Assembly (NCBI GenBank): GCA_002796125.1
Contig: PCWA01000109.1
Span: 1,347-65,346, forward strand
Origin: Candidatus Ghiorseimicrobium undicola
GTDB taxonomy: Bacteria > Omnitrophota > Gorgyraeia > Ghiorseimicrobiales > Ghiorseimicrobiaceae
Direction of reading: 5' to 3'
DNA: 64,000 bases
In this document: positions 3,899 to 56,930 of the stretch, piece by piece
Layout of the letters: the number at the start of each line of letters is the position of its first letter
Position numbering within the stretch: the first letter of the stretch is position 1
The notes under the pieces: model-generated
What the model was told of the DNA's origin: nothing
Database searches by the model: none
Seen by the model: only the letters and a program-made list of their open reading frames with translations
Translations under genes and position numbers: made by a program

Positions 3899-4038
3899 TA
3901 GTGCGCTGTTAATTTAATTTTTAATAGGACAGCGCACAGAGCAATTGAGCAATAGATAATAGAACAATAGACAAGCAAAAGCTCAATTGCGGTCTATTTT
4001 CTATTGCTCTATTGTTCAAGAATTAGTTTAACAATGTA
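3899..4038. repeat. Structured ~140 bp repeat, copy A; inverted copy of 17479-17621
   Basis: Nested palindromes gtgcgctgt...acagcgcac and gcaattgagc...gctcaattgc. The reverse complement matches 17494-17621 with about 4 mismatches. Confidence 0.85.
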
Positions 4039-4059
4039 TTAGCATGATTTTTAAGTAAG

Positions 4060-12198: not shown

Positions 12199-13299
12199 TT
12201 ATATATCCGCGGATATTCTTTCCAAATCCACATTGTTTTTTACCAAATTAATTATCTCTTCAATCTTCTCATTATCCTGCGGCCTTATCTTGATAGTTAA
12301 ATCATGTATGATAGAGGCTACTTTGTAAGTATCAAGGCTGGATAAAAGAATAGGCACGTTTATTGACTGAGCAAAATCAATAATTGTTTTGTGCGGGATG
12401 ACGCCTCCGGAAAGAACTATGCCGGAAACATTGATACATCCCTTTATCTGTGAGCTATGGCAATTTAAAGCCGTCATGATCATATCTTCTCTGTCTCCCG
12501 GAGTAATCATCAAGCACCTATCAGAGATATAATTTAACGCGTCATGCGGGCCCATGGCGCCTACGATAATTTTCATCACGACATTATTCAGGCCCTCTTC
12601 TCCGCAAATCAATTTAAAATCCGCCTCCTCCGCAACCTGTCCTATGGTAGGAGCGCAAAGGCGGGGATGATACGGAATCACACCCAACACATCTATGCCT
12701 TTCCTGCTTAAACCCTTGCGTACCAATTTATTAATCTTATCAAACTTATCCGGCATTATTTTATTTATAATTACTCCCAGAAGCCTGACTCCGCAGGAAT
12801 CAAAAAGCGTTTTATTCAAAACTATTTCATCTATCGGCCTGCCTATCCCTCCGGAAGAGACCAAGATCACCTTAGCGCCCAATAACTTTGCTACATAAGC
12901 GTTGGAATGGTCGAATACACTGCCCACTCCCGCATGCCCCGTACCTTCAATCACCACGAAATCCTTTTGGGCAGCTATACGCTCATAGGAAGCCAGTATA
13001 CGTTCGGTAATCGCCTCCTTGTTTGGATGCAGGATATATTCTTCGGTAAATCCTTTTTCGACTGCGACAGGGCTCATATCCTTGAGCCCGCATTTGATAC
13101 CGCAGACCTCTTCTATCAAGACCGAGTCTTCATCCACTTTTACGCCTTCTTCAATAAGGTATCTCTGCCCTATAGGCTTTATAAAGCCGATTTTTTTATA
13201 CATTTTGCTGAAGTTAGAAATAAGGCCTAAACACGTGGTGGTCTTGCCGTCATTCTGGCGCGTTGCGGCAATAAATATATTTTTATGATTATTGCTCAT
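12199..13299 (-). CDS. Pta N-terminal domain protein (P-loop CobQ/DRTGG-type regulatory half of long Pta)
   Basis: 366 aa; GKTT P-loop, matches the N-terminal half of E. coli-type Pta; own stop (TAA) at 12199. Confidence 0.7.
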   Translation of the reverse strand: MSNNHKNIFIAATRQNDGKTTTCLGLISNFSKMYKKIGFIKPIGQRYLIEEGVKVDEDSVLIEEVCGIKCGLKDMSPVAVEKGFTEEYILHPNKEAITERILASYERIAAQKDFVVIEGTGHAGVGSVFDHSNAYVAKLLGAKVILVSSGGIGRPIDEIVLNKTLFDSCGVRLLGVIINKIMPDKFDKINKLVRKGLSRKGIDVLGVIPYHPRLCAPTIGQVAEEADFKLICGEEGLNNVVMKIIVGAMGPHDALNYISDRCLMITPGDREDMIMTALNCHSSQIKGCINVSGIVLSGGVIPHKTIIDFAQSINVPILLSSLDTYKVASIIHDLTIKIRPQDNEKIEEIINLVKNNVDLERISADI

Positions 13300-13339
13300 A
13301 AGCTAAATTATATAACCCTTGGCAACTCCCAGCTTCATA

Positions 13340-13660
13340 TTATAAGCTCGAATCTATTTTCTGCTTTAACTGTTGCTTGCTTAATGCGCCGACAACCTGA
13401 TTTACAACCTTGCCGTTTTTGAATATTACCAAAGTAGGCACGGACATTATCCCGTAATTAGAAGCCGTGTCCTGGCCTTCGTCTATATCAAGCTTGCCTA
13501 CCTTTAAACGGCCTTTGTATTCTTCGGCTAGTTCCTCAACTATAGGCGCTATTGCCTTACACGGCCCGCACCACGAAGCGGAAAAATCAACCAATACCGG
13601 CAAGGCGGAAGAAACAACTTCCTGATTAAAATTTCCATCACTAAGATGAATTAAAGACAT
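13340..13660 (-). CDS. trxA: Thioredoxin
   Basis: WCGPCK active site; likely start at MSLIHL (GGAGGGA SD upstream) rather than the ORF-track start at 13687. Confidence 0.85.
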   Translation of the reverse strand: MSLIHLSDGNFNQEVVSSALPVLVDFSASWCGPCKAIAPIVEELAEEYKGRLKVGKLDIDEGQDTASNYGIMSVPTLVIFKNGKVVNQVVGALSKQQLKQKIDSSL

Positions 13661-13812
13661 ACTCCCTCCATTAATAAAGTTTATCAATATTTAAACAAGA
13701 ATAGGAATTGCCAGAAGGTTATTGCCTATATGAAATAGAGGCAAGGAGTTTCTGAGCGTAAAAAAATATAATAGCATAAAATAGCCTTTATTTCAATATT
13801 CAAATCCGGCAC

Positions 13813-14049
13813 GGTAGTATGCGGAAAATTGTGTAAATTCGCCTGCTGGCTTGGGCTGATTTTGAGCAGGGCGTAACGCAGGCCGAGCAGGCAAGGTTCG
13901 CCTTTGATTGCATATTGGCGAGAGCGAGGCCGAGTAGCCGAGCGCGATTTTCCACGCTGGGGAAAATCGCGCGTCCCCGCGAAAAATAAGGCCAAGCCAG
14001 CGGCCATGTTAATCCGCTATAATTTACACAATTTATTCTACACAACCAA
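13813..14049. mobile_element. Non-autonomous MITE-like element with IS256-family-like terminal inverted repeats and a GC-rich palindromic core
   Basis: Left end ggtagtatgcggaaaattgtgtaaatt (13813-13839) and right end aatttacacaatttatt (14021-14037) mirror the IR pattern ggtagtat...aattgtgtgtaaatt / aatttacacaatttatt at the ends of the IS at 28911-30276. Flanked by 12-bp direct repeat ccggcacggtag (13806-13817, 14050-14061). Core is ~55% GC against a ~38% genome. Confidence 0.7.
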
Positions 14050-14086
14050 CCGGCACGGTAGCATTTATTAATAAGACAACTGCGCG

Positions 14087-15082
14087 CTATTTCACGCTAT
14101 ACAAACAAACCCTGTTTTTGCCTAGATTCTTCGCTTCATAAAGCGCCCTGTCGGCCTTATCCATCAAATCTTTATCGCTTTGCGCATCAATGGGAAAGCT
14201 GGTAATTCCTATGCTTATAGTCGCCCTTAAAACAGTATCGTAGGCTTTTATAACGTTATCTTCCACTGCCCTTCGTATGCGCTCAGCGGCAAACAAAGCC
14301 GCCTGCTTATCCGTCTCCGGAAGTATGAGTATAAATTCTTCCCCCCCAAACCTGCCTAATAAATCTATAGATCTGATGTTTTCCTTTATTACAGACGATA
14401 CCGCCACCAAAACAACATCGCCTATCAAATGCCCAAGCCGGTCATTATATTCTTTAAAATTATCTACATCAATCATCACGCAGGAAAGGAAAAGATTATT
14501 ATGCCGGCAGCGTAAAACCTCTTCCTTGAGACGCTCCAGGCAATGACGCTTAACTAGAACCTGTGTAAGGTTATCGGTTATTGACAATTCCTGCATTACC
14601 TGATAAAGCTCCGCCCGTTTCCGGACCAAAGCAAATTGATTAGCAAGAATCTTAAATTTATCCTTATTGCCGCCTTCTAAGCCTTTTACGGCTAAAGCTT
14701 CCATGCCCTGATTTTCCAAGCTAAGCGGAAAAACGAAATAACAATTATCTATTTTTTCAAGCTCCTCTCTATTCAATAATAAGCATTCCGCGATGCCTAA
14801 AACCGATTTTAAAATATTCTTAAATATAATAAATATTTTATTCTTGTCCAATGTTTTTGATATGTCTTTTACGACTTTATAAAGCGTTGTAACATTCCGG
14901 TATTCTTCTTCTAAAAGCAAAGATTGGCTTCTTATGCTCTTTAACTTATCCAGCATCGTATTATATTCATTCCGGTATTTTTCAAATTCAGCATTCTGCC
15001 TCAAGGAAAAATTCCTGCCTGCTTCCCTTACCTGCAAAATAACAACCAGAGATAAAATTATAACCGCAATTAAGAAAAACAT
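14087..15082 (-). CDS. Diguanylate cyclase (TM + coiled coil + GGDEF)
   Basis: 331 aa; GGEEF active site, N-terminal TM helix. Confidence 0.8.
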   Translation of the reverse strand: MFFLIAVIILSLVVILQVREAGRNFSLRQNAEFEKYRNEYNTMLDKLKSIRSQSLLLEEEYRNVTTLYKVVKDISKTLDKNKIFIIFKNILKSVLGIAECLLLNREELEKIDNCYFVFPLSLENQGMEALAVKGLEGGNKDKFKILANQFALVRKRAELYQVMQELSITDNLTQVLVKRHCLERLKEEVLRCRHNNLFLSCVMIDVDNFKEYNDRLGHLIGDVVLVAVSSVIKENIRSIDLLGRFGGEEFILILPETDKQAALFAAERIRRAVEDNVIKAYDTVLRATISIGITSFPIDAQSDKDLMDKADRALYEAKNLGKNRVCLYSVK

Positions 15083-17431: not shown

Positions 17432-17478
17432 TTCTCCTCACTTCTTTCGAAAGCAGACGATTTTTAGTTATTGATTAC

Positions 17479-17621
17479 TAGTGCACTGTAAAATTAATTC
17501 TTGAACAATAGAGCAATAGAAAATAGACCGCAATTGAGCTTTTGCTTGTCTATTGTTCTACTCTCTATTGCTCAATTGCTCTGCGCGCTGTCCTATTAAA
17601 AATTAAATTAACAGCGCACTA
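17479..17621. repeat. Structured ~140 bp repeat, copy B (inverted relative to 3899-4038)
   Basis: Terminal inverted repeat tagtgcactgt (17479-17489) / acagcgcacta (17611-17621); internal palindromes as in copy A. Confidence 0.85.
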
Positions 17622-25468: not shown

Positions 25469-28400
25469 TTAAATCTCGTTTTTTTCTAAAATAGGCATAA
25501 AGGCGTTAACGATTGCCGGGTCAAACTGTGAACCAGCGCCGTCTTTAATTATTTTAATGGCTTCATCTTTCGAATAAGCTTTACGGTATGGACGGTCAGA
25601 AATTAAAGCCTGGTAAACATCCGCTATAGCAATAATTCGCGCGCCCATCGGGATATCTTCGCCCCTTAATCCGCTGGGATAGCCGGTACCATCCCATTTT
25701 TCATGATGATACAGCATGAGCGGGATCATGCTGCGCAAAAAATGTACCGGCCGTATGATATCAACAGCGATCTGGGGGTGTTTTTTGATTTCTTCAAATT
25801 CTTCCCCTGAAAGCGGAGTCCTCTTAAGCAGGATTTTTTCGCTTATACCCACCTTGCCCAAATCATGAAGGGCCGCAGCCTGCCTTATCAAAACTATATC
25901 TTCCTTAGAAAGCATCAATGCCTTAGCAATACTATCGGCGTATTCTACGGTATTTTCCACATGCTCTCCGGTATAATGGTCTTTTAATTCTATCGTCTTG
26001 GCAAAAGCAAAAACCGCCTCCATCAAACTTTGATTAGTCTGCCGCGTAAGTTTATCCAATTTGCCCTTAAGAAAAGAAACGTCTTCTTCTACACTCTTAT
26101 CCATATAATTTTCTTTTTTATTTTTCAAAATATCTGCATGCGAATAAACCCTCCCCCCTCCGTCATATTTAGCCTTATCTAAAATCTTGTCTGCCAGCTC
26201 AACCAATTCCATGCCTTTTGCCGCCCTGTCTTCAGGATATGAAACAACCGACATACTTAATTTTAATCTTATAGAAGTATCATTATTGCCGAAATTATAC
26301 AGGGATATGGCATCCGATAGCCTTTGCGACAAATTAATAGCCGACGATACATCTATGCCGGGGCATATAATAACAAATTCTTCTCCGCCGAACCTTATAA
26401 TGATATCATAGCGCCGCACCATACGCTTAAGCTGGCGCGCAAATTGTTTCAATACCAAATCGCCAAATTCATGCCCATAGACTTTATTTATGGATTTAAA
26501 ATAATCTATATCCAGCATTATTACGGAAAGCGACTGCGTATAACGGTTAGCCCTGACAAATTCCGTCTCAATTACTTCCGCAAGGTAACGATGGTTATAT
26601 ACTCCCGTATGGTAATCTCTCAATACCAATTCATTCAGCCGCCTGCTTGATTTTATCAATTCCTTATTTATCTCTTTAAGTTTTCTTTCTGTATGTTTAC
26701 GCTCTGTTATATTAACAAATGATACCAATGTCTTGGCTAATGTCTGTTCATAGATAGGAGGAACTGACCATTTAACATAAACATCTATCTTATTACCTTT
26801 GAGCGTAAAGACAATCAATTCGCAATCAAAAACAGACTTACCCTCACCTATGGCAATCAGCTCTTCTTTAAACATGGTCAATGATTCTTCAGCCAGCGTC
26901 ATTTTCGGGTTTGAAATTAGGGTGTTTTTATCATCAGCCTCAAATAGAGTCAGCGCTGATTTATTGGCATCCAAAATCTTAACCATAGACATGCAATCAG
27001 TAATGGCATCCGGATTAGCTTCAAAATATGCGCGGAAATCAACAATCCCCTTTTTCTTTAGAAGATCTATAAATATTTTTATATTAGAGAAATCCTCCTC
27101 CAATAAAGCAACAGGAGAATCTTCGAATAAGGCATGGTAACGCCTGCTGCTTTCATGGAGCATGCCTTCTGATTTTTTTCTTTCGGATATATCTCTTATA
27201 ATGGCCAATATACTTTGCCTTTGATTAAGGACGATGTGCTTAAGGCTGATTTCCGCCCAAAACAGGCCTGCCTCTTTAGTCTTGCAGCGCCATTCAAACA
27301 CTTGTGGCTTACCGTCTATTGCTTCAGCAACAAAATTGTAAAGTTCTTTTTTGGAATAAGGCGGATAACCCAGGCTCAAATCGCAGATATCCATTTTTTT
27401 TATTTCCAGCTCAGAATAGGCGAAAATATCCAGCATCTTTTTATTAGCGTTTACTACTTTGGCGGACTTAATATCATAAATAACGATAATATCATTAGCG
27501 AAATTAAAAATATCGCTATAATTGGCCTCTGATTCACGCAAAGCTCTTTCAGCGTGTTTTCTGCGGGTAATATCCATAACCATCCCGGAGATCTCATCGT
27601 CTTCAAGAAGCGCATCAACAAGAATATGCTTGATTATTTTTGCCTCGGTTAAAATTTCCAACTCCAAGCCTTCAACCTTGCCTTTCATTTTAAGCAGCTG
27701 AATAAAAGCCTCATAATCATTTCTGCTTTTATAAAACCCGGCCATATTAAAATGCATTATTTTTTCCAAAGGCATAAAATCGAATATATCCGCCAGCGCC
27801 TTGTTCGCGTATAAAATATCTCCCTTTAAATTCGTTTTGTATATCCCGACTATGGCATTTTCGGTAAGGTCGCGGTATTTCTTTTCGGATAAATTCAGCG
27901 CCTCCTGAGCCTTCTTCTGTTTCGTTATGTCAAGGCAATATTCAATAATCTGCATAACCTTTCCTTTTTTGTCAAATATTGGATAGGCATGCACTTCAAC
28001 ATGCCTTGCCTCGCCTTTCTTATCGTAATGCACATGCTCAACCACCACCGGTTTTTTTGTCTTCTTAACTTCCTGCAATGTGCAGGGATATCCGTCTTTA
28101 AAACATGGCCGCCCGCTTTTATGTGTTATGCCGTAACAAGTAGACTTAGGGCTTAGTTCTCCAAGCTGCGCTGTGGAATTGGCTAATTTAATAGTATAAT
28201 CTTTGGCATCCACCACATAAAACGGATGAGAAAGCGATTCTATGGCACTGTATAAAAATTCCTTTTGATGAAGGATTTTATTTTCCTCCGCTTTGCGTGC
28301 CGTAATATCCTGCATTGTCTCTATTACATAAATGACCTTGCCGGATTTATCCTTCTTGGGCGTTGAGGTAAGATTGTATATCTTGCCATCGCTGCAAACT

Positions 28401-28723
28401 CCTGTTTCGGAAAAAGAAACCTTTCCTGTTTTAAAAGTTTTTATGGCCGGGCAATTATCGCAAATATTTTTCCTAGACTTAGAAAATAATAACTTATAAC
28501 AGACAGGATTAGCCTTTAATTTGACCTGGGGGAACCCCTCTTCAAAAACTTTATTAAACCAAACCAACTCCATCCGGGGATTTATTATGACAGCCCCCAT
28601 GTTTGAATCGTATAAAAGCTTACCCACCATTTTGCCTATTGATTTTTCCCTATTCATAAACATGGCTATGCCGGTTTTATGACTTTTAAAAACCTTTGTT
28701 TTTTTCTCTAAATTTTTACCCAT
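25469..28723 (-). CDS. Multidomain c-di-GMP signalling protein: several PAS domains + GGDEF + HD-GYP
   Basis: 1084 aa; GGEEF (IIRFGGEEFVIICPG) and HD-GYP signature HHEKWDGTGYP; Cys-cluster motifs in the N-terminal PAS domains. Confidence 0.85.
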   Translation of the reverse strand: MGKNLEKKTKVFKSHKTGIAMFMNREKSIGKMVGKLLYDSNMGAVIINPRMELVWFNKVFEEGFPQVKLKANPVCYKLLFSKSRKNICDNCPAIKTFKTGKVSFSETGVCSDGKIYNLTSTPKKDKSGKVIYVIETMQDITARKAEENKILHQKEFLYSAIESLSHPFYVVDAKDYTIKLANSTAQLGELSPKSTCYGITHKSGRPCFKDGYPCTLQEVKKTKKPVVVEHVHYDKKGEARHVEVHAYPIFDKKGKVMQIIEYCLDITKQKKAQEALNLSEKKYRDLTENAIVGIYKTNLKGDILYANKALADIFDFMPLEKIMHFNMAGFYKSRNDYEAFIQLLKMKGKVEGLELEILTEAKIIKHILVDALLEDDEISGMVMDITRRKHAERALRESEANYSDIFNFANDIIVIYDIKSAKVVNANKKMLDIFAYSELEIKKMDICDLSLGYPPYSKKELYNFVAEAIDGKPQVFEWRCKTKEAGLFWAEISLKHIVLNQRQSILAIIRDISERKKSEGMLHESSRRYHALFEDSPVALLEEDFSNIKIFIDLLKKKGIVDFRAYFEANPDAITDCMSMVKILDANKSALTLFEADDKNTLISNPKMTLAEESLTMFKEELIAIGEGKSVFDCELIVFTLKGNKIDVYVKWSVPPIYEQTLAKTLVSFVNITERKHTERKLKEINKELIKSSRRLNELVLRDYHTGVYNHRYLAEVIETEFVRANRYTQSLSVIMLDIDYFKSINKVYGHEFGDLVLKQFARQLKRMVRRYDIIIRFGGEEFVIICPGIDVSSAINLSQRLSDAISLYNFGNNDTSIRLKLSMSVVSYPEDRAAKGMELVELADKILDKAKYDGGGRVYSHADILKNKKENYMDKSVEEDVSFLKGKLDKLTRQTNQSLMEAVFAFAKTIELKDHYTGEHVENTVEYADSIAKALMLSKEDIVLIRQAAALHDLGKVGISEKILLKRTPLSGEEFEEIKKHPQIAVDIIRPVHFLRSMIPLMLYHHEKWDGTGYPSGLRGEDIPMGARIIAIADVYQALISDRPYRKAYSKDEAIKIIKDGAGSQFDPAIVNAFMPILEKNEI

Positions 28724-28747: not shown

Positions 28748-28784
28748 AAAGGCAGTTTTCTAACTTGAATAGAAAACTGCCTTT
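28748..28784 (-). terminator. Leader hairpin (intrinsic-terminator-like) in the 5' UTR of the PAS-GGDEF-HD-GYP gene
   Basis: Perfect 14-bp stem aaaggcagttttct / agaaaactgccttt with a 9-nt loop, followed on the minus strand by TGTTTTTG and then the ATG about 35 nt later. Confidence 0.5.
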
Positions 28785-28865: not shown

Positions 28866-28894
28866 AGTATAACATATCAAATCAGATTTGTCAA
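28866..28894 (-). promoter_or_regulatory. Putative sigma-70 promoter for the PAS-GGDEF-HD-GYP gene
   Basis: Minus strand TTGACA (28889-28894) - 17 nt - TATACT (28866-28871); the -35 lies 17 bp from the IS left end. Confidence 0.5.
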
Positions 28895-28910
28895 TTGGTG
28901 ATGTAGCGGA

Positions 28911-30276
28911 GGTAGTATACTCAATTGTGTGTAAATTAGCTTTACAGCATTAATAAAAAGGCGTATCTTTCTGTTTGGAACATTATTAACCCAGGCCGGA
29001 CACGCCAATGTCTGCCTAACCAGAAAGGATACGCCATGCAATACGTTGTTACAGAACATAGTTTACGGCGCCGATGGGCAAGAGTCAATGAGTTTTTTCA
29101 ATGCACGCAGGAGAAAGACTTTTGGGTTGACATTAATCAGTACCTGCGCCGTATGGTTAAGGGCGTTATTGAAGTCAGCCTCGATGAGGAAATGATCCAA
29201 TACATGCAGACACAGCCTTATCAAAGAACTAATAAATCAAGCCGCTTAGATTACCGTAACGGATATTATCATCGCAATCTTGATACTACTTTCGGCCCGG
29301 TTGAACAAATTGCCATTCCCCGCTCAAGGCAGGGATTATTCAGGCCATCTGTTTTTGAACGTTATCAAAGACGGCAACAATCCGTTAATGATGTCGTCTG
29401 TAATGTATTCCTGCGCGGGATATCTACCAGGGATGTCGCGGAAGCATTAAAACCGCTGCTCAACACCACTCTTTCGGCTTCGGCAGTATCCAGAATTACC
29501 AAACGCTTGAACCCCATGGTTAAAGAATTCCATCAACGTAAACTGCTCGATGAATACCAGTTCTTGTTTTTAGACGGCATTACTATCTCGGTCAAAGGCT
29601 CGCTTAAGGCAAAGAAAATACTTGTCCTTGTGGCTTATGGAATAACCGTCTTCGGCAAAAAGGAACTTGTCGCCTTTAGAATCGCCAATGCCGAGTCTGC
29701 TTCTGCCTGTGAAAGCTTCCTTAATGATTTATTTAAGCGCGGGCTTGAAGGCAAAAACCTCAAGATGATTATTACCGACGGCTCCAAAGGCTTTATAGCC
29801 GCGATTGAACTTGTCTATCCGCATGCCCTGCATCAACGCTGCTGGGTGCATAAACTGCGTAATGCCACCAAGCGCCTTAAAAAAACGGATATCAAACCTT
29901 TTAAGGCGGAGGCGCGCAAGATTTATAACGCCTCTACTCATAGAAAGGCCGTAGCCGCCTTCAAAACATTAAGGAATCATTGGAAAGGCATCGCGCCTGA
30001 GGCGGTTAATTGCCTTGAGCGCGACATAGACGAGCTTTTAGCCTTCTTGACTATTCCTATTAAAGAACAATACCGTGCTTTTATCCGCCGGCAGATTCGC
30101 ACTACCAACATCATCGAGCGCTCATTCCGCGAAGTCAGGCGTAGGACTAGGCCGATGGGTTGTTTTACTAATTACGACAGCGTATCACGTATTATTTACG
30201 CGATTTTTAACCGTCTAAACTCCAAATGGCAAGAGAAGCCTTTAGAACAATTTACACAATTTATTTGACATTACCT
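28911..30276 (+). mobile_element. IS256-family insertion sequence (1366 bp) with 8-bp target site duplication GTAGCGGA
   Basis: Direct repeats gtagcgga at 28903-28910 and 30277-30284. Imperfect terminal IRs ggtagtatactcaattgtgtgtaaatt / (reverse complement) aggtaatgtcaaataaattgtgtaaatt. Encodes a mutator/IS256-type transposase. Confidence 0.85.
29036..30268 (+). CDS. IS256 family transposase
   Basis: 410 aa; Transposase_mut-type core (FLFLDGITISVKG...VLVAYGITVFGKKE), typical length. Confidence 0.85.
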   Translation: MQYVVTEHSLRRRWARVNEFFQCTQEKDFWVDINQYLRRMVKGVIEVSLDEEMIQYMQTQPYQRTNKSSRLDYRNGYYHRNLDTTFGPVEQIAIPRSRQGLFRPSVFERYQRRQQSVNDVVCNVFLRGISTRDVAEALKPLLNTTLSASAVSRITKRLNPMVKEFHQRKLLDEYQFLFLDGITISVKGSLKAKKILVLVAYGITVFGKKELVAFRIANAESASACESFLNDLFKRGLEGKNLKMIITDGSKGFIAAIELVYPHALHQRCWVHKLRNATKRLKKTDIKPFKAEARKIYNASTHRKAVAAFKTLRNHWKGIAPEAVNCLERDIDELLAFLTIPIKEQYRAFIRRQIRTTNIIERSFREVRRRTRPMGCFTNYDSVSRIIYAIFNRLNSKWQEKPLEQFTQFI

Positions 30277-31559
30277 GTAGCGGACACAATTGACTGATAA
30301 GTAATTTTCAGTAATTTTTTAAGCGTATTCATGGAAATATTTAGCGCCGGCATAAGCACAATTACATTACCTAACGGCCTTAGTATTGCCCCCCGTTTTC
30401 TTGCTTCGTTTACAACCTTTAGGCCTATTCTTTCTTCCCAATGATAAGGCGTACCGGCTTTTTTATTCTTTATTAATTCAATACCCACCATAAAACCCAA
30501 TTGCCGCACCTCTTTTACGTTCTTAAGTCCTTGAAAAACCTTAAGTTGAATTTTTAGATAGTTAATTTTTGGCTTGAGCTTCTGTAAAGTTTTCTCTTTT
30601 TTGAATATCTTAAGATTTGCCAAAGCGGCACTGCAAGCCAAAGGATTGGCAGTATAACTATGCCCATGAAAAAATGTCTTTTTATGGCCGTAATATCCTA
30701 AAAAAGCCCTGTATATCTTATCGCTGGTAATGGTTGCGGCTAAAGGCAAGTAGCCCCCCGTAATGCCTTTACCTAAGCACATCACATCCGGCCTAACCTT
30801 CTCATGCTCACAAGCAAACATTTTTCCGGTCCTGCCGAATCCAGTAGCCACTTCATCAGCTATAAACAATATATCATAACGGCTGCAAAGCAGTCTTGCC
30901 TTTTTTAAAAAACCGCTAGGACAAAGCAGCATCCCGCCTGCCCCTTGTATCAATGGTTCAATAATCAAAGCGGCGATTTTTTTATGATGCCTTTTTAAGA
31001 GGGTTTCCAATTTTTTTTCACAAAAACCAGCCATGTAAGAGCCAAACAATAGCGGCTTGTATATATTATGAAACAAATTAATCCCTCCCACGCTCACGGA
31101 ACCTACGGTGTCACCGTGATATGAATTATTAAAATATATAAATTTTGTTTTACCGGCCATACCCTTATGGCGCCAATATTGAAAACACATTTTAAGCGCT
31201 ATCTCAACGCTGGTCGAGCCATTATCAGAATAGAATACCTTATTTAAGCCAGGAGGCACTATGCCGATTAATTGCCTGGCAAGTAAAATAGCTTTCTCAT
31301 GGCTTAAGCCTAAAAAAGTTGAATGCGCGATTTTCCCAAGCTGCTTTTTTACTGCCGAATCTATTTCTTTGTTTCTGTGACCATGCACATTAACCCATAA
31401 AGAAGAAACGCCGTCTATGAACCATCGGCCATGCATATCTTTTAAATACACCCCCCTGCCTTCCTTGACAATCAAAGGATCTTCCCTCAACCAATCGCGC
31501 ATCTGGGTAAATGGGTGCCAAACATATTTTTTATCCAGTTGAGTTAAATTTTTACGCAT
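30261..31559 (-). CDS. bioA: Adenosylmethionine-8-amino-7-oxononanoate aminotransferase
   Basis: 432 aa class-III aminotransferase at the end of the bio operon. The last 4 codons and the stop (GNVK*) are supplied by the IS right end. Confidence 0.85.
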   Translation of the reverse strand: MRKNLTQLDKKYVWHPFTQMRDWLREDPLIVKEGRGVYLKDMHGRWFIDGVSSLWVNVHGHRNKEIDSAVKKQLGKIAHSTFLGLSHEKAILLARQLIGIVPPGLNKVFYSDNGSTSVEIALKMCFQYWRHKGMAGKTKFIYFNNSYHGDTVGSVSVGGINLFHNIYKPLLFGSYMAGFCEKKLETLLKRHHKKIAALIIEPLIQGAGGMLLCPSGFLKKARLLCSRYDILFIADEVATGFGRTGKMFACEHEKVRPDVMCLGKGITGGYLPLAATITSDKIYRAFLGYYGHKKTFFHGHSYTANPLACSAALANLKIFKKEKTLQKLKPKINYLKIQLKVFQGLKNVKEVRQLGFMVGIELIKNKKAGTPYHWEERIGLKVVNEARKRGAILRPLGNVIVLMPALNISMNTLKKLLKITYQSIVSATGNVK

Positions 31560-53023: not shown

Positions 53024-53359
53024 TTATTTATGTTTTAAATCCAATTCTATCTTAAGATGAACCGTGCGCTTCAAAATCGGCGCAGCCCTGCCAAACGCCG
53101 CTGCCCGGTATCGCTTCCATCTTGCGCCTTCATCAGCGCTGATACGGGATATATAGAGCTGTTGAGGTTCTATGCCTTTAACTTTAGCGTTAGCAATAGC
53201 AGAACGAAGCGTTTTAAGCACGTAATCCCGCGGACGCTTATTTAAATTAGGCAATAAGCCCAACGCATAAGAAACATCTTCGCCTCTAATTAAATCAATG
53301 ACTTCGCGTGTTTTTCTTGGTGACAGCCTTAAAAATTTGTTTTCTGCTCTTGATATCAT
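53024..53359 (-). CDS. rplV: 50S ribosomal protein L22
   Basis: 111 aa. Confidence 0.95.
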   Translation of the reverse strand: MISRAENKFLRLSPRKTREVIDLIRGEDVSYALGLLPNLNKRPRDYVLKTLRSAIANAKVKGIEPQQLYISRISADEGARWKRYRAAAFGRAAPILKRTVHLKIELDLKHK

Positions 53360-53483
53360 ATTAATGAGCCCACAACTTACGGAGTGAAGCTAACGTAAGT
53401 TGTTTGGGCGAATTAATCCCGCAGCCTATCAGGGTAAATTTCTGCGAAATTTACCCTGATGTTTAGGCAAGGGATATTGATCC
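53360..53483. repeat. Structured intergenic repeat family, copy 4, abutting the rplV start codon (inside the S10 operon)
   Basis: ttaatgagccc-[hairpin acaacttacg/cgtaagttgt]-ttgggcgaattaatcccg-[perfect hairpin cagggtaaattt/aaatttaccctg]-gtttaggcaagggat. Confidence 0.8.
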
Positions 53484-56467: not shown

Positions 56468-56767
56468 TTATTTTATTTCTACCGCTACTCCAGCAGGTAG
56501 GTTTAGCTTACGCAGGGCATCAACCGTCTTAGCCGTAGGATCAAGCAACTCTAAAAGACGACGATGCGTAAAAAGGCCAAATTGTTCCCGTGATTTTTTA
56601 TCAATAACCGTAGCCCTTAACACTGTGTATATCTCTTTTTTAGTCGGCAGCGGAATCGGTCCTGAAACACGCGCACCAGTCCTTTTCGCTGTCTCTACGA
56701 TTTCCTGTGTTGATTGATCAAGCAATCTGTGATCGTAAGCTTTTAATTTTATACGTATCTTCTGCAT
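56468..56767 (-). CDS. rpsJ: 30S ribosomal protein S10
   Basis: Likely start ATG at 56767 ([12 protein letters not shown] matches the S10 N-terminus); the ORF track begins at an upstream in-frame GTG (56779). Confidence 0.95.
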
Positions 56768-56930
56768 TTTAATGAGCACATAAGTTACGGAAGCGAAGCT
56801 GACGTAATTTATAAGTGCGAATTAATCCCGAAGCCTGTGCAGTAAATTTCGAAGAAATTTACAAACGTTTAGGCGAGGGATACATTTACAAACTGCTGAG
56901 CCCATCCGCCTGCGGCGAAATATGGGCGAA
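56768..56930. repeat. Structured intergenic repeat family, copy 5 (with 3' extension module), between the tuf stop and the rpsJ start
   Basis: tttaatgagcac-[hairpin ataagttacg/cgtaatttat with a G-T pair]-gtgcgaattaatcccg-[cagtaaattt/aaatttac]-gtttaggcgagggatacattt...gagcccatccgcctgcggcgaaatatgggcgaatt. Confidence 0.8.

Follow-up and report, generated by a model that had tools for sequence, protein, structure and literature searches.

Between a thioredoxin gene (trxA) and a gene for a GGDEF-domain protein, in a 64,000-nucleotide stretch of the genome of Candidatus Ghiorseimicrobium undicola, an uncultivated member of the Omnitrophota (GenBank assembly GCA_002796125.1, contig PCWA01000109.1, positions 1,347 to 65,346; the whole stretch is referred to below as the window), lies a short element that carries no transposase gene and whose ends resemble those of a complete insertion sequence (IS) of the IS256 family located in the same window. 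What kind of element is it, by what means could it have moved, and what brought it to the position in which it is found? The element, at window positions 13813-14047, is very probably a miniature transposable element with inverted repeats (MITE) of the IS256 family, moved in trans and subject to an oriented targeting of promoters that is specific to one clade of this family. A MITE alone would be routine; the new part is that a clade of IS256-family elements, and a MITE with it, choose sites at a set distance upstream of promoters.

Anatomy and copies of the miniature element

The boundaries of the MITE were drawn from the comparison of six copies and of the DNA flanking them, which gave an element of 235 bp on the forward strand, with an inverted repeat at each end and a GC-rich, structured core of about 180 bp. 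When the 27-nt ends were aligned without gaps from their tips, the left inverted repeat (IRL, 13813-13839, GGTAGTATGCGGAAAATTGTGTAAATT) matched the IRL of the IS (28911-28937) at 21 of 27 positions, and the right inverted repeat (IRR, 14021-14047, AATTTACACAATTTATTCTACACAACC) matched the IRR of the IS (30249-30275) at 23 of 27, with a 17-mer shared exactly; in MITE copies from elsewhere, the IRL of which reads ...TATACGG, the agreement with the IRL of the IS is 22/27. All four ends carry the motif TGTAAA at nucleotides 20-25 from the tip, and the 13-mer AATTTACACAATT, with at most one mismatch allowed, has three matches in the 64 kb against 0.35 expected, all of them at ends of the MITE or of the IS. 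A preliminary description of the locus had proposed that the ends of the element copy the terminal pattern of the full IS256-family element, and that it is too small to encode a transposase. Both proposals are borne out: the end comparisons give the first, and for the second, the 235 bp hold no credible open reading frame (ORF), those called being of only 55-93 amino acids, running through the ends of the element and devoid of Pfam domains.

The core has a G+C content of about 57%, versus 41% in the window, and the MITE is predicted to fold into a long hairpin of -95 kcal/mol (z = -5.1), with z values of about -5 on both strands; small motifs composed of a hairpin and a run of T lie close to both ends. 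No Rfam family was found for the MITE, either in a search of positions 13000-15000 at E values up to 1 or in a search of the whole window at the gathering score, and when the core was compared by blastn with the IS and with every locus retrieved, only other copies of the MITE were returned, with no similarity to the IS. The possibility that the MITE is a simple internal deletion of the IS in the window was ruled out, the core being unrelated and the ends differing at 5-6 (left) and 4 (right) of 27 positions. The spacing within the MITE IRL resembles that of an element at locus L033, a 58%-identity relative more distant than the resident IS, and this resemblance, together with the unrelated core, suggests that the MITE was derived from the IS clade and not by deletion of the copy in the window.

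It had also been claimed that the element is flanked by a direct repeat of 12 bp. The 12-mer ccggcacggtag is indeed present twice, at 13807-13818 and 14050-14061; GGTAG is the start of the other MITE copies and of every IS copy, which places the left tip at 13813 and assigns 5 bases of the left 12-mer to the IRL tip, and a target-site duplication (TSD) of 12 bp was rejected for this reason. The actual TSD is of 9 bp and imperfect, with the promoter-proximal copy at 13804-13812 (atccggcac) and the distal copy at 14048-14056 (aaccggcac) agreeing at 8 of 9 positions. The distal copy is followed by GGTAG at 14057-14061, an extra occurrence that was found at this locus and no other. Positions 14057-14064, which read GGTAGCAT, form a near-copy of the IRL tip GGTAGTAT, and are the source of the apparent 12-bp repeat; the extra GGTAG is probably a coincidence, of a kind expected about once in 1000 per locus.

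Contigs carrying the MITE were found in public assemblies from several metagenome samples by means of the exact GGDEF and thioredoxin proteins, of sequence patterns and of protein words, and a search for the spurious ORFs called within the MITE led, through three clusters of proteins, to two further loci. The six copies align at 97-100% identity over the 235 bp, and such near-identical copies occupy at least five different loci in metagenomes of one and the same Omnitrophota population. Five distinct flanks are seen on the IRR side (the GGDEF gene, PheT in L011, a radical-SAM gene in L010, and those of L009 and L025), and three on the IRL side could be read as DNA, namely trxA, a 6S RNA/RarA locus in L011, and L009. 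One more IRL-side flank can be deduced at the protein level only, from the protein P0002 on another contig of a metagenome-assembled genome (MAG) at NCBI; its residues AWVRYIDSI allow a TTGA at offset 16 on condition that Ile is encoded by ATT, and it was left out of the tally given below. In this same Omnitrophica MAG (CG11_big_fil_rev_8_21_...), COV72_08490, COV72_08430 and COV72_05130 are nearly identical or identical to, respectively, the transposase of the IS, the GGDEF protein and a MITE-derived ORF. Duplications accompany the copies elsewhere, of 9 bp with an 8/9 match at L011 (gcgcttgcc/gcgcttacc) and of 8 bp with an 8/8 match at L009 (gaagcggg).

Many metagenome contigs stop inside or at the MITE, which is the usual sign of a repeat. 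No second copy was detected in a repeat search of the 64-kb window, and a gapped, end-to-end pattern of the MITE had no match in 185,579 GTDB species genomes, a null that is probably explained by the loss or breakage of such a repeat in MAGs; the same pattern found one locus, L009, in JGI metagenome contigs. Three contigs or contig groups (L001, L010/L022 and L025) join flanks of different MITE loci and switch from one to the other inside the MITE, with the crossover visible in the patterns of single-nucleotide polymorphisms; L001, L010 and L025 may be either assembly chimeras or real recombinants.

Promoters beside the left ends

The set of flanks examined comprised the distinct ones of the MITE and of about seven IS variants with transposase identities of 77-100%, taken from GTDB genomes and from metagenomes, nearly all of them labelled Omnitrophota, and the motif sought outward from the tip was TTGAnn-16/17-TAnnnT. 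A sigma70-type promoter firing outward from the IRL tip was observed in 21 of 22 distinct left-end flanks, 18 of them of the IS and 3 of the MITE, with a constant arrangement in which the tip is followed by the 8-9-bp duplication, 6-7 nt, TTGAnn, a spacer of 16-17 nt and TAnnnT. The -35 hexamer starts 16 nt from the IRL tip in 17 flanks and 15 nt from it in the other 4; the twenty-second flank is an IRR-9 bp-IRL junction, to which we return below. At right ends the motif was absent from that offset (0/32 flanks), with two weak matches elsewhere in the range of 10-24 nt, and its background frequency is 3.4e-4 per position in the window and 1.3e-3 in AT-rich stretches. In the IS and the MITE alike it is invariably the IRL that faces the promoter, and the sequences of IRL and IRR differ. 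In keeping with this orientation, the genes to the left of the transposase genes of the relatives lie on the opposite strand, as expected.

Positions that the motif did not require also follow the promoter consensus: among the first 18 flanks, 13 have T as the third base of the -10 hexamer and 12 have C as the fifth base of the -35 hexamer, and among the first 13 about half show a TG before the -10 hexamer. Conservation within the target is highest at TTGA, present in 20/21 flanks, with TTG invariant in 21/21. That the promoter might be part of the element was considered and rejected, as the flanks have no sequence but the hexamers in common and the duplications lie directly against the tips.

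Both elements of the window conform to this arrangement, and both of their promoters were found independently by a promoter scanner. Beside the MITE, the trxA promoter (13768-13796, minus strand) reads TTGAAA-17-TATTAT with a TG before the -10 hexamer, its -35 hexamer starting 16 nt beyond the IRL tip (scan score 10/12). Beside the IS, the promoter at 28866-28894 (minus strand; scan score 11/12) reads TTGACA-17-TATACT, again with a TG before the -10 hexamer and a -35 start 16 nt beyond the tip, and is directed away from the IS towards the gene at 25469-28723. The leader between this promoter and the start of the adjacent gene, which encodes a PAS/GGDEF/HD protein of 1084 amino acids, contains a hairpin with a perfect 15-bp stem (28748-28784). 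The target of the IS is palindromic (28889-28897 and 30287-30294: GTCAATTG ... tgtagcgga ... CAATTGAC), and a weaker outward motif, TTGACT-16-TAATTT, is found 14 nt from its right end. In the MITE copy of L011 (copy B), the promoter is TTGATT-16-TATACT, at 16 nt from the IRL tip, and is followed, at a distance of a few bases, by a 6S RNA gene (L011, 2597-2754; Rfam RF00013, 60.6 bits), a gene also present at about 6330-6490 of L001. Copy D of the MITE (L009, about 1033-1075) lies beside TTGACA-17-TAGAAT, which is followed 6 nt later by the ATG of a membrane-protein ORF, an arrangement that suggests a leaderless mRNA.

The genes on both sides of the MITE were assigned by Pfam, and agree with the earlier placement of an element of about 235 bp between trxA and a GGDEF gene. 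The thioredoxin gene (13340-13660, minus strand; PF00085, E = 1e-33) is downstream of the targeted promoter, and the diguanylate-cyclase gene (14087-15082, minus strand; PF00990, E = 5e-42) has its stop codon 39 bp from the MITE IRR. The nearest GGDEF ortholog, 57% identical, is found in NCBI assembly GCA_011051015.1 (locus L061), from a related member of the Omnitrophota, within the same order of seven genes. Its spacer between the GGDEF gene and trxA is of 180 bp, versus 426 bp here, a difference of 246 bp that is close to 235 + 9, and it contains no MITE and has kept the trxA promoter (TTGAAA-17-TAATAT, versus TTGAAA-17-TATTAT here). The ortholog is a distant one, and the empty site is established by synteny and length, not base for base. 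A polymorphic empty site within the species was not found, all contigs with the exact GGDEF or trxA protein either carrying the MITE or breaking in it. The preliminary description had named further copies, the presence of the termini on other full copies of the IS and the state of an orthologous locus as the observations that would tell a non-autonomous derivative from ancestral sequence, and all three came out on the side of the derivative: near-identical copies lie at different loci with duplications of their own (L009, L011), every further copy of the IS has the termini, ten additional contigs carrying it at 100% identity, and the sequence is absent from the orthologous locus L061. The 8-bp duplications that it had anticipated at other copies were seen at L009 and once for the IS; the one at L011 and the others of the IS are of 9 bp.

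Partner insertion sequence and mobilization

The autonomous partner in the window is an IS of 1365 bp on the forward strand (28911-30275; the start given earlier was right, and the end is 30275 instead of 30276), with a single transposase gene at 29036-30268 (plus strand, 410 amino acids). The transposase matches PF00872 (Transposase_mut) with E = 1.8e-88 and 297 bits (cut-off 21) and the NCBIfam model transpos_IS256 (NF033543) with 328.8 bits (cut-off 150); the NCBIfam ISLre2 model reached no more than 16.9 bits, where its cut-off is 200, and ISKra4 was absent from the matches. By these profile scores the enzyme clearly belongs to the IS256 family and is not a member of ISLre2 or ISKra4. The IS is flanked by a perfect 9-bp TSD, tgtagcgga, at 28902-28910 and 30276-30284. 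With the window copy included, the identical copies have six distinct left and five distinct right flanks, counting those with at least 30 nt of sequence, and the TSD is perfect, of 9 bp and once of 8 bp, wherever both sides belong to one locus.

The IRR of the IS has, 5 nt from the tip, a TTGACA that reads outward, and the IRL a TATACT at nucleotides 6-11; were the ends joined in a circle with 7 bp between them, these hexamers would be separated by 17 nt. The MITE has lost the TTGACA of the IRR (TTCTACA is found instead), and both hexamers of the putative junction promoter are gone from it, as expected where an element has nothing to express. In a 77%-identity relative (L067, about 60-130), an IRR-9 bp-IRL junction was found whose 9 bp (ggccgagaa) are the right flank of a copy in L066; it may be a tandem dimer or a circle junction, and is possible evidence of ongoing copy-out/paste-in transposition. 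From the fully identical copies, their distinct flanks, the perfect duplications and this junction, the partner IS is apparently active.

Other features of the IS copies were observed. The last four codons and the stop codon of an aminotransferase-like ORF (30261-31559, minus strand) lie within the right end of the IS (window 30261-30284), and in the reconstructed empty site this ORF would run 34 codons further, giving 462 instead of 432 amino acids, so that the promoter-targeted insertion has re-tailed the upstream gene. A look-up of the 1084-amino-acid gene beside the IS, aimed at an empty IS site, returned nothing on record. In an IS copy of 87% identity (L029, about 1290-1400), an extra, self-complementary, GC-rich insert of about 110 nt is located between the left inverted repeat and the conserved 5' leader, and a similar GC-rich motif, GGGTCCTGCC..GAGGCAC, recurs in the right flank of L029 after position 2760; structured GC-rich inserts of this sort may be passengers that recur in AT-rich genomes such as these, and MITE cores could have arisen from them.

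A mechanism can be proposed in which the MITE retains one IRL-type and one IRR-type end of an Omnitrophota clade of the IS256 family, of which the IS at 28911-30275 would be one member, and in which these ends flank an unrelated GC-rich core able to form a hairpin. A transposase supplied in trans by an IS of the clade would move the MITE through a circular intermediate, leaving duplications of 8-9 bp, and would set the IRL tip upstream of an outward-firing sigma70-type promoter, at 15-16 bp from its -35 hexamer; the MITE follows the same rule, lying here just upstream of the trxA promoter and, in another copy, upstream of a 6S RNA promoter. Judging from the sequences compared, it is highly likely that the clade transposase mobilizes the MITE in trans, or did so in the past, through copy-out/paste-in, and the oriented choice of target shared by the MITE and the IS lends independent support to trans-mobilization. 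The two asymmetric ends are the only part common to the MITE and the IS, which suggests that these ends and a transposase acting in trans are enough for targeted and oriented integration. By analogy with what has been proposed for TnGBS, the promoter might be recognized as a complex bound by RNA polymerase holoenzyme, to which we give an even chance or slightly less.

How much of the promoter is actually read bears on an alternative in which the MITE is real and the transposase recognizes only a TTGA or TTGAC word at a fixed distance, with selection removing insertions inside genes and with no contact with RNA polymerase; this is a reasonable possibility, of less than even probability. It would account for the strict conservation of TTG and TTGA in the flanks; the outward TTGACA near the tip of the IS IRR indicates that the transposase already handles that word, and metagenome assemblies hold only insertions that have reached high frequency. 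Against a word read-out stands the -10 hexamer that all 21 flanks also have at 16-17 nt, promoter-like even at positions that were not required and TG-extended in about half of the cases. The complete identity of the IS copies points to recent insertions, which would have left little time for selection, and the insertion that re-tailed the aminotransferase-like ORF shows that the avoidance of genes is not absolute; nor does the word in the IRR seem to be needed in cis, given that the MITE ends, which lack TCAA/TTGACA, target alike. Another possibility, which we regard as unlikely, is that the MITE is a fossil, the dead derivative of an extinct or different clade IS that spread in the past and that the present IS cannot mobilize. 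Its degraded duplications (8/9 at two loci), the differences of up to 2.5% between its copies when those of the IS are identical, an IRL spacing closer to the L033 element than to the resident IS, and its presence at the trxA locus in every sampled population, with no empty sites found within the species, are all in line with such a history. Yet every copy of the MITE has kept intact the conserved core of the ends (AAATTGTGTAAATT, with TGTAAA at nucleotides 20-25, and the GGT tip), and IS variants with equally divergent ends (GGTAGTATAC, GGTGATATAC, CTC/CTG/CCA) are apparently active and multi-copy. It could also be imagined that the sequence is a structured repeat of the host, such as a small RNA gene, an element of the repetitive extragenic palindromic (REP) type or a regulatory hairpin, that merely resembles the ends of an IS; the strong fold on both strands, the invariably intergenic position and the hairpin-plus-T-run motifs near both ends would suit it. 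This we consider highly improbable, in view of the lack of an Rfam match, of ends that match those of the IS in the correct left and right arrangement with the family motif at equal distance from the tips, of flanking duplications of the length typical of the family, of a choice and orientation of target identical to those of the IS, and of the absence of the sequence from a syntenic ortholog in which the promoter is conserved.

Several observations weigh against a trans-mobilized MITE with clade-specific promoter targeting as set out here. The mover could be another member of the clade, as the MITE IRL differs from that of the window IS at 5-6/27 positions and has the spacing of L033. The two distant relatives examined, L033 (58%) and L034 (43%), at one locus each, are not at promoters. 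Assembled metagenomes hold only the survivors of selection, so that the -10 signal could reflect survivorship and not recognition. The number of IRL-side flanks of the MITE readable as DNA is only three, and, given the possible chimeras, the count of MITE loci rests on flanks and not on fully resolved loci. Finally, the duplications of the MITE are imperfect or short when compared with the perfect ones of the IS, so that its insertions may be old; from these degraded duplications, and from copies 1-2.5% apart where those of the IS are identical, the MITE may now be inactive.

Repeats unrelated to the MITE and the IS are also present in the window. One is intergenic, of about 144 nt, with two copies in inverted orientation (3899-4042 and 17478-17621) that are 94% identical; it begins with TAGTGCGCTGTTAATTT, contains internal inverted repeats and has ends that are not of IS256 type, and could be another small mobile or regulatory element. 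Another block, of about 100 nt, is present four times (45632-45779, 49026-49099, 53357-53478 and 56765-56887; families D1, D2, D11 and D13) at intervals of 3.4-4.3 kb, and its copies are probably upstream regions or ends of paralogous genes.

Significance and known systems

The consequences of these observations are of several kinds. Promoter targeting would gain a third, separately classified transposase lineage, and a three-way comparison can pin down the residues responsible; this matters for the docking of TnGBS-type elements on RNA polymerase, which has been proposed and never shown. The MITE offers a natural minimal substrate, and suggests that two asymmetric ends of 27 nt suffice in cis for both targeting and orientation. 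The assumption that insertion in the IS256 family is random is corrected, which bears on how IS256-type insertions beside genes are read. In the uncultivated Omnitrophota every insertion serves as the marker of a promoter: a consensus similar to TTGACA-17-TATAAT emerges from the 21 sites, and the promoters of trxA and of 6S RNA were identified without transcript data. The MITE also breaks or misjoins metagenome assemblies at promoters, a reason for caution with MAG synteny in its Omnitrophota host. In its fullest and more tentative form, which we hold to be possible and somewhat less than probable, the picture would be that of a lineage of IS256 proper (p-MULT 1) with strict oriented integration, acquired independently or retained as an ancestral Mutator-like trait, which has spawned perhaps the first MITE to be described for the family and the first of any family seen to home to promoters, with recognition of the holoenzyme and with the 27-nt ends as the sole need in cis.

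Small elements of this general type are well known in bacteria. Correia and RUP elements are among the bacterial MITEs. MITEPye1 of Paracoccus yeei has been attributed to transposases of the IS1182 family (PMC11578231). Like bacterial MITEs in general, the element described here is small and lacks a transposase, has terminal inverted repeats copied from an IS, is flanked by direct repeats, lies between genes, forms a long stem-loop and is presumably mobilized in trans. Unlike the other bacterial MITEs, it is of IS256 parentage, has asymmetric ends, one of IRL and one of IRR type, and is inserted in one orientation at a defined position relative to a promoter. The remark in the preliminary description that MITEs derived from the IS256 family are not commonly described agrees with the open-access full-text literature, in which neither a MITE attributed to this family nor a promoter-targeting element of the family was found.

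The partner IS itself has the usual features of its family. The ends of IS256-family elements are known to carry a subterminal TGTAAA, with a -35-like hexamer at the right end and a -10-like hexamer at the left end that may form a junction promoter upon circularization (PMC7780238). As in IS256 and ISCth4, the elements of the clade have a single ORF encoding a PF00872 protein, a length of about 1.3-1.5 kb, imperfect inverted repeats with the subterminal TGTAAA and duplications of 8-9 bp, and the partner IS has a -35-like TTGACA in its IRR and a -10-like TATACT in its IRL. The difference lies in the choice of target. Among 109 elements of the IS256 family (p-MULT 1) no positional enrichment was observed, and the insertion of IS256 was called random (PMC3942029); for ISPsy17, another member of the family, no target consensus was observed (PMC3189936). 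Unlike IS256, for which no target preference is reported (PMC3942029), the clade described here is strictly associated with promoters.

The closest parallel in behavior is found in the conjugative elements TnGBS and in ISLre2 (p-MULT 3), which insert in one orientation upstream of sigmaA promoters and at a constant 15-17 bp from the -35 hexamer (Guerillot et al. 2014, PMC3942029, with Brochet et al. 2009 cited there), and in the ISKra4 group (p-MULT 4), which follows the same promoter rule with a weaker signal (PMC3942029). In TnGBS-type elements the orientation has been ascribed to the asymmetry of the inverted repeats, docking on the RNA polymerase initiation complex has been proposed, and a conserved Asp between the domains N1 and N2 is the sequence signature linked to targeting in TnGBS, ISLre2 and ISKra4; non-autonomous derivatives are not described in that study, in which the word MITE does not occur (PMC3942029). 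The clade studied here shares with these elements a fixed distance (here 15-16 bp), a single orientation with differing inverted repeats, duplications of 8-9 bp, a safe intergenic landing site and a DDE transposase of the Mutator superfamily, which here would likewise act through a circular intermediate; its transposase is of the IS256 family, so that it behaves similarly to them without being a member of their group. A more remote resemblance concerns the eukaryotic Mutator elements and Pack-MULEs, whose insertions favor the promoters of genes and their 5' ends (PMC3942029). They have the transposase superfamily in common with the elements described here, and non-autonomous derivatives are common among them; unlike the MITE, which lies at a set distance from a promoter hexamer, they have a bias that is regional and linked to chromatin, and there is no direct relationship between the two.

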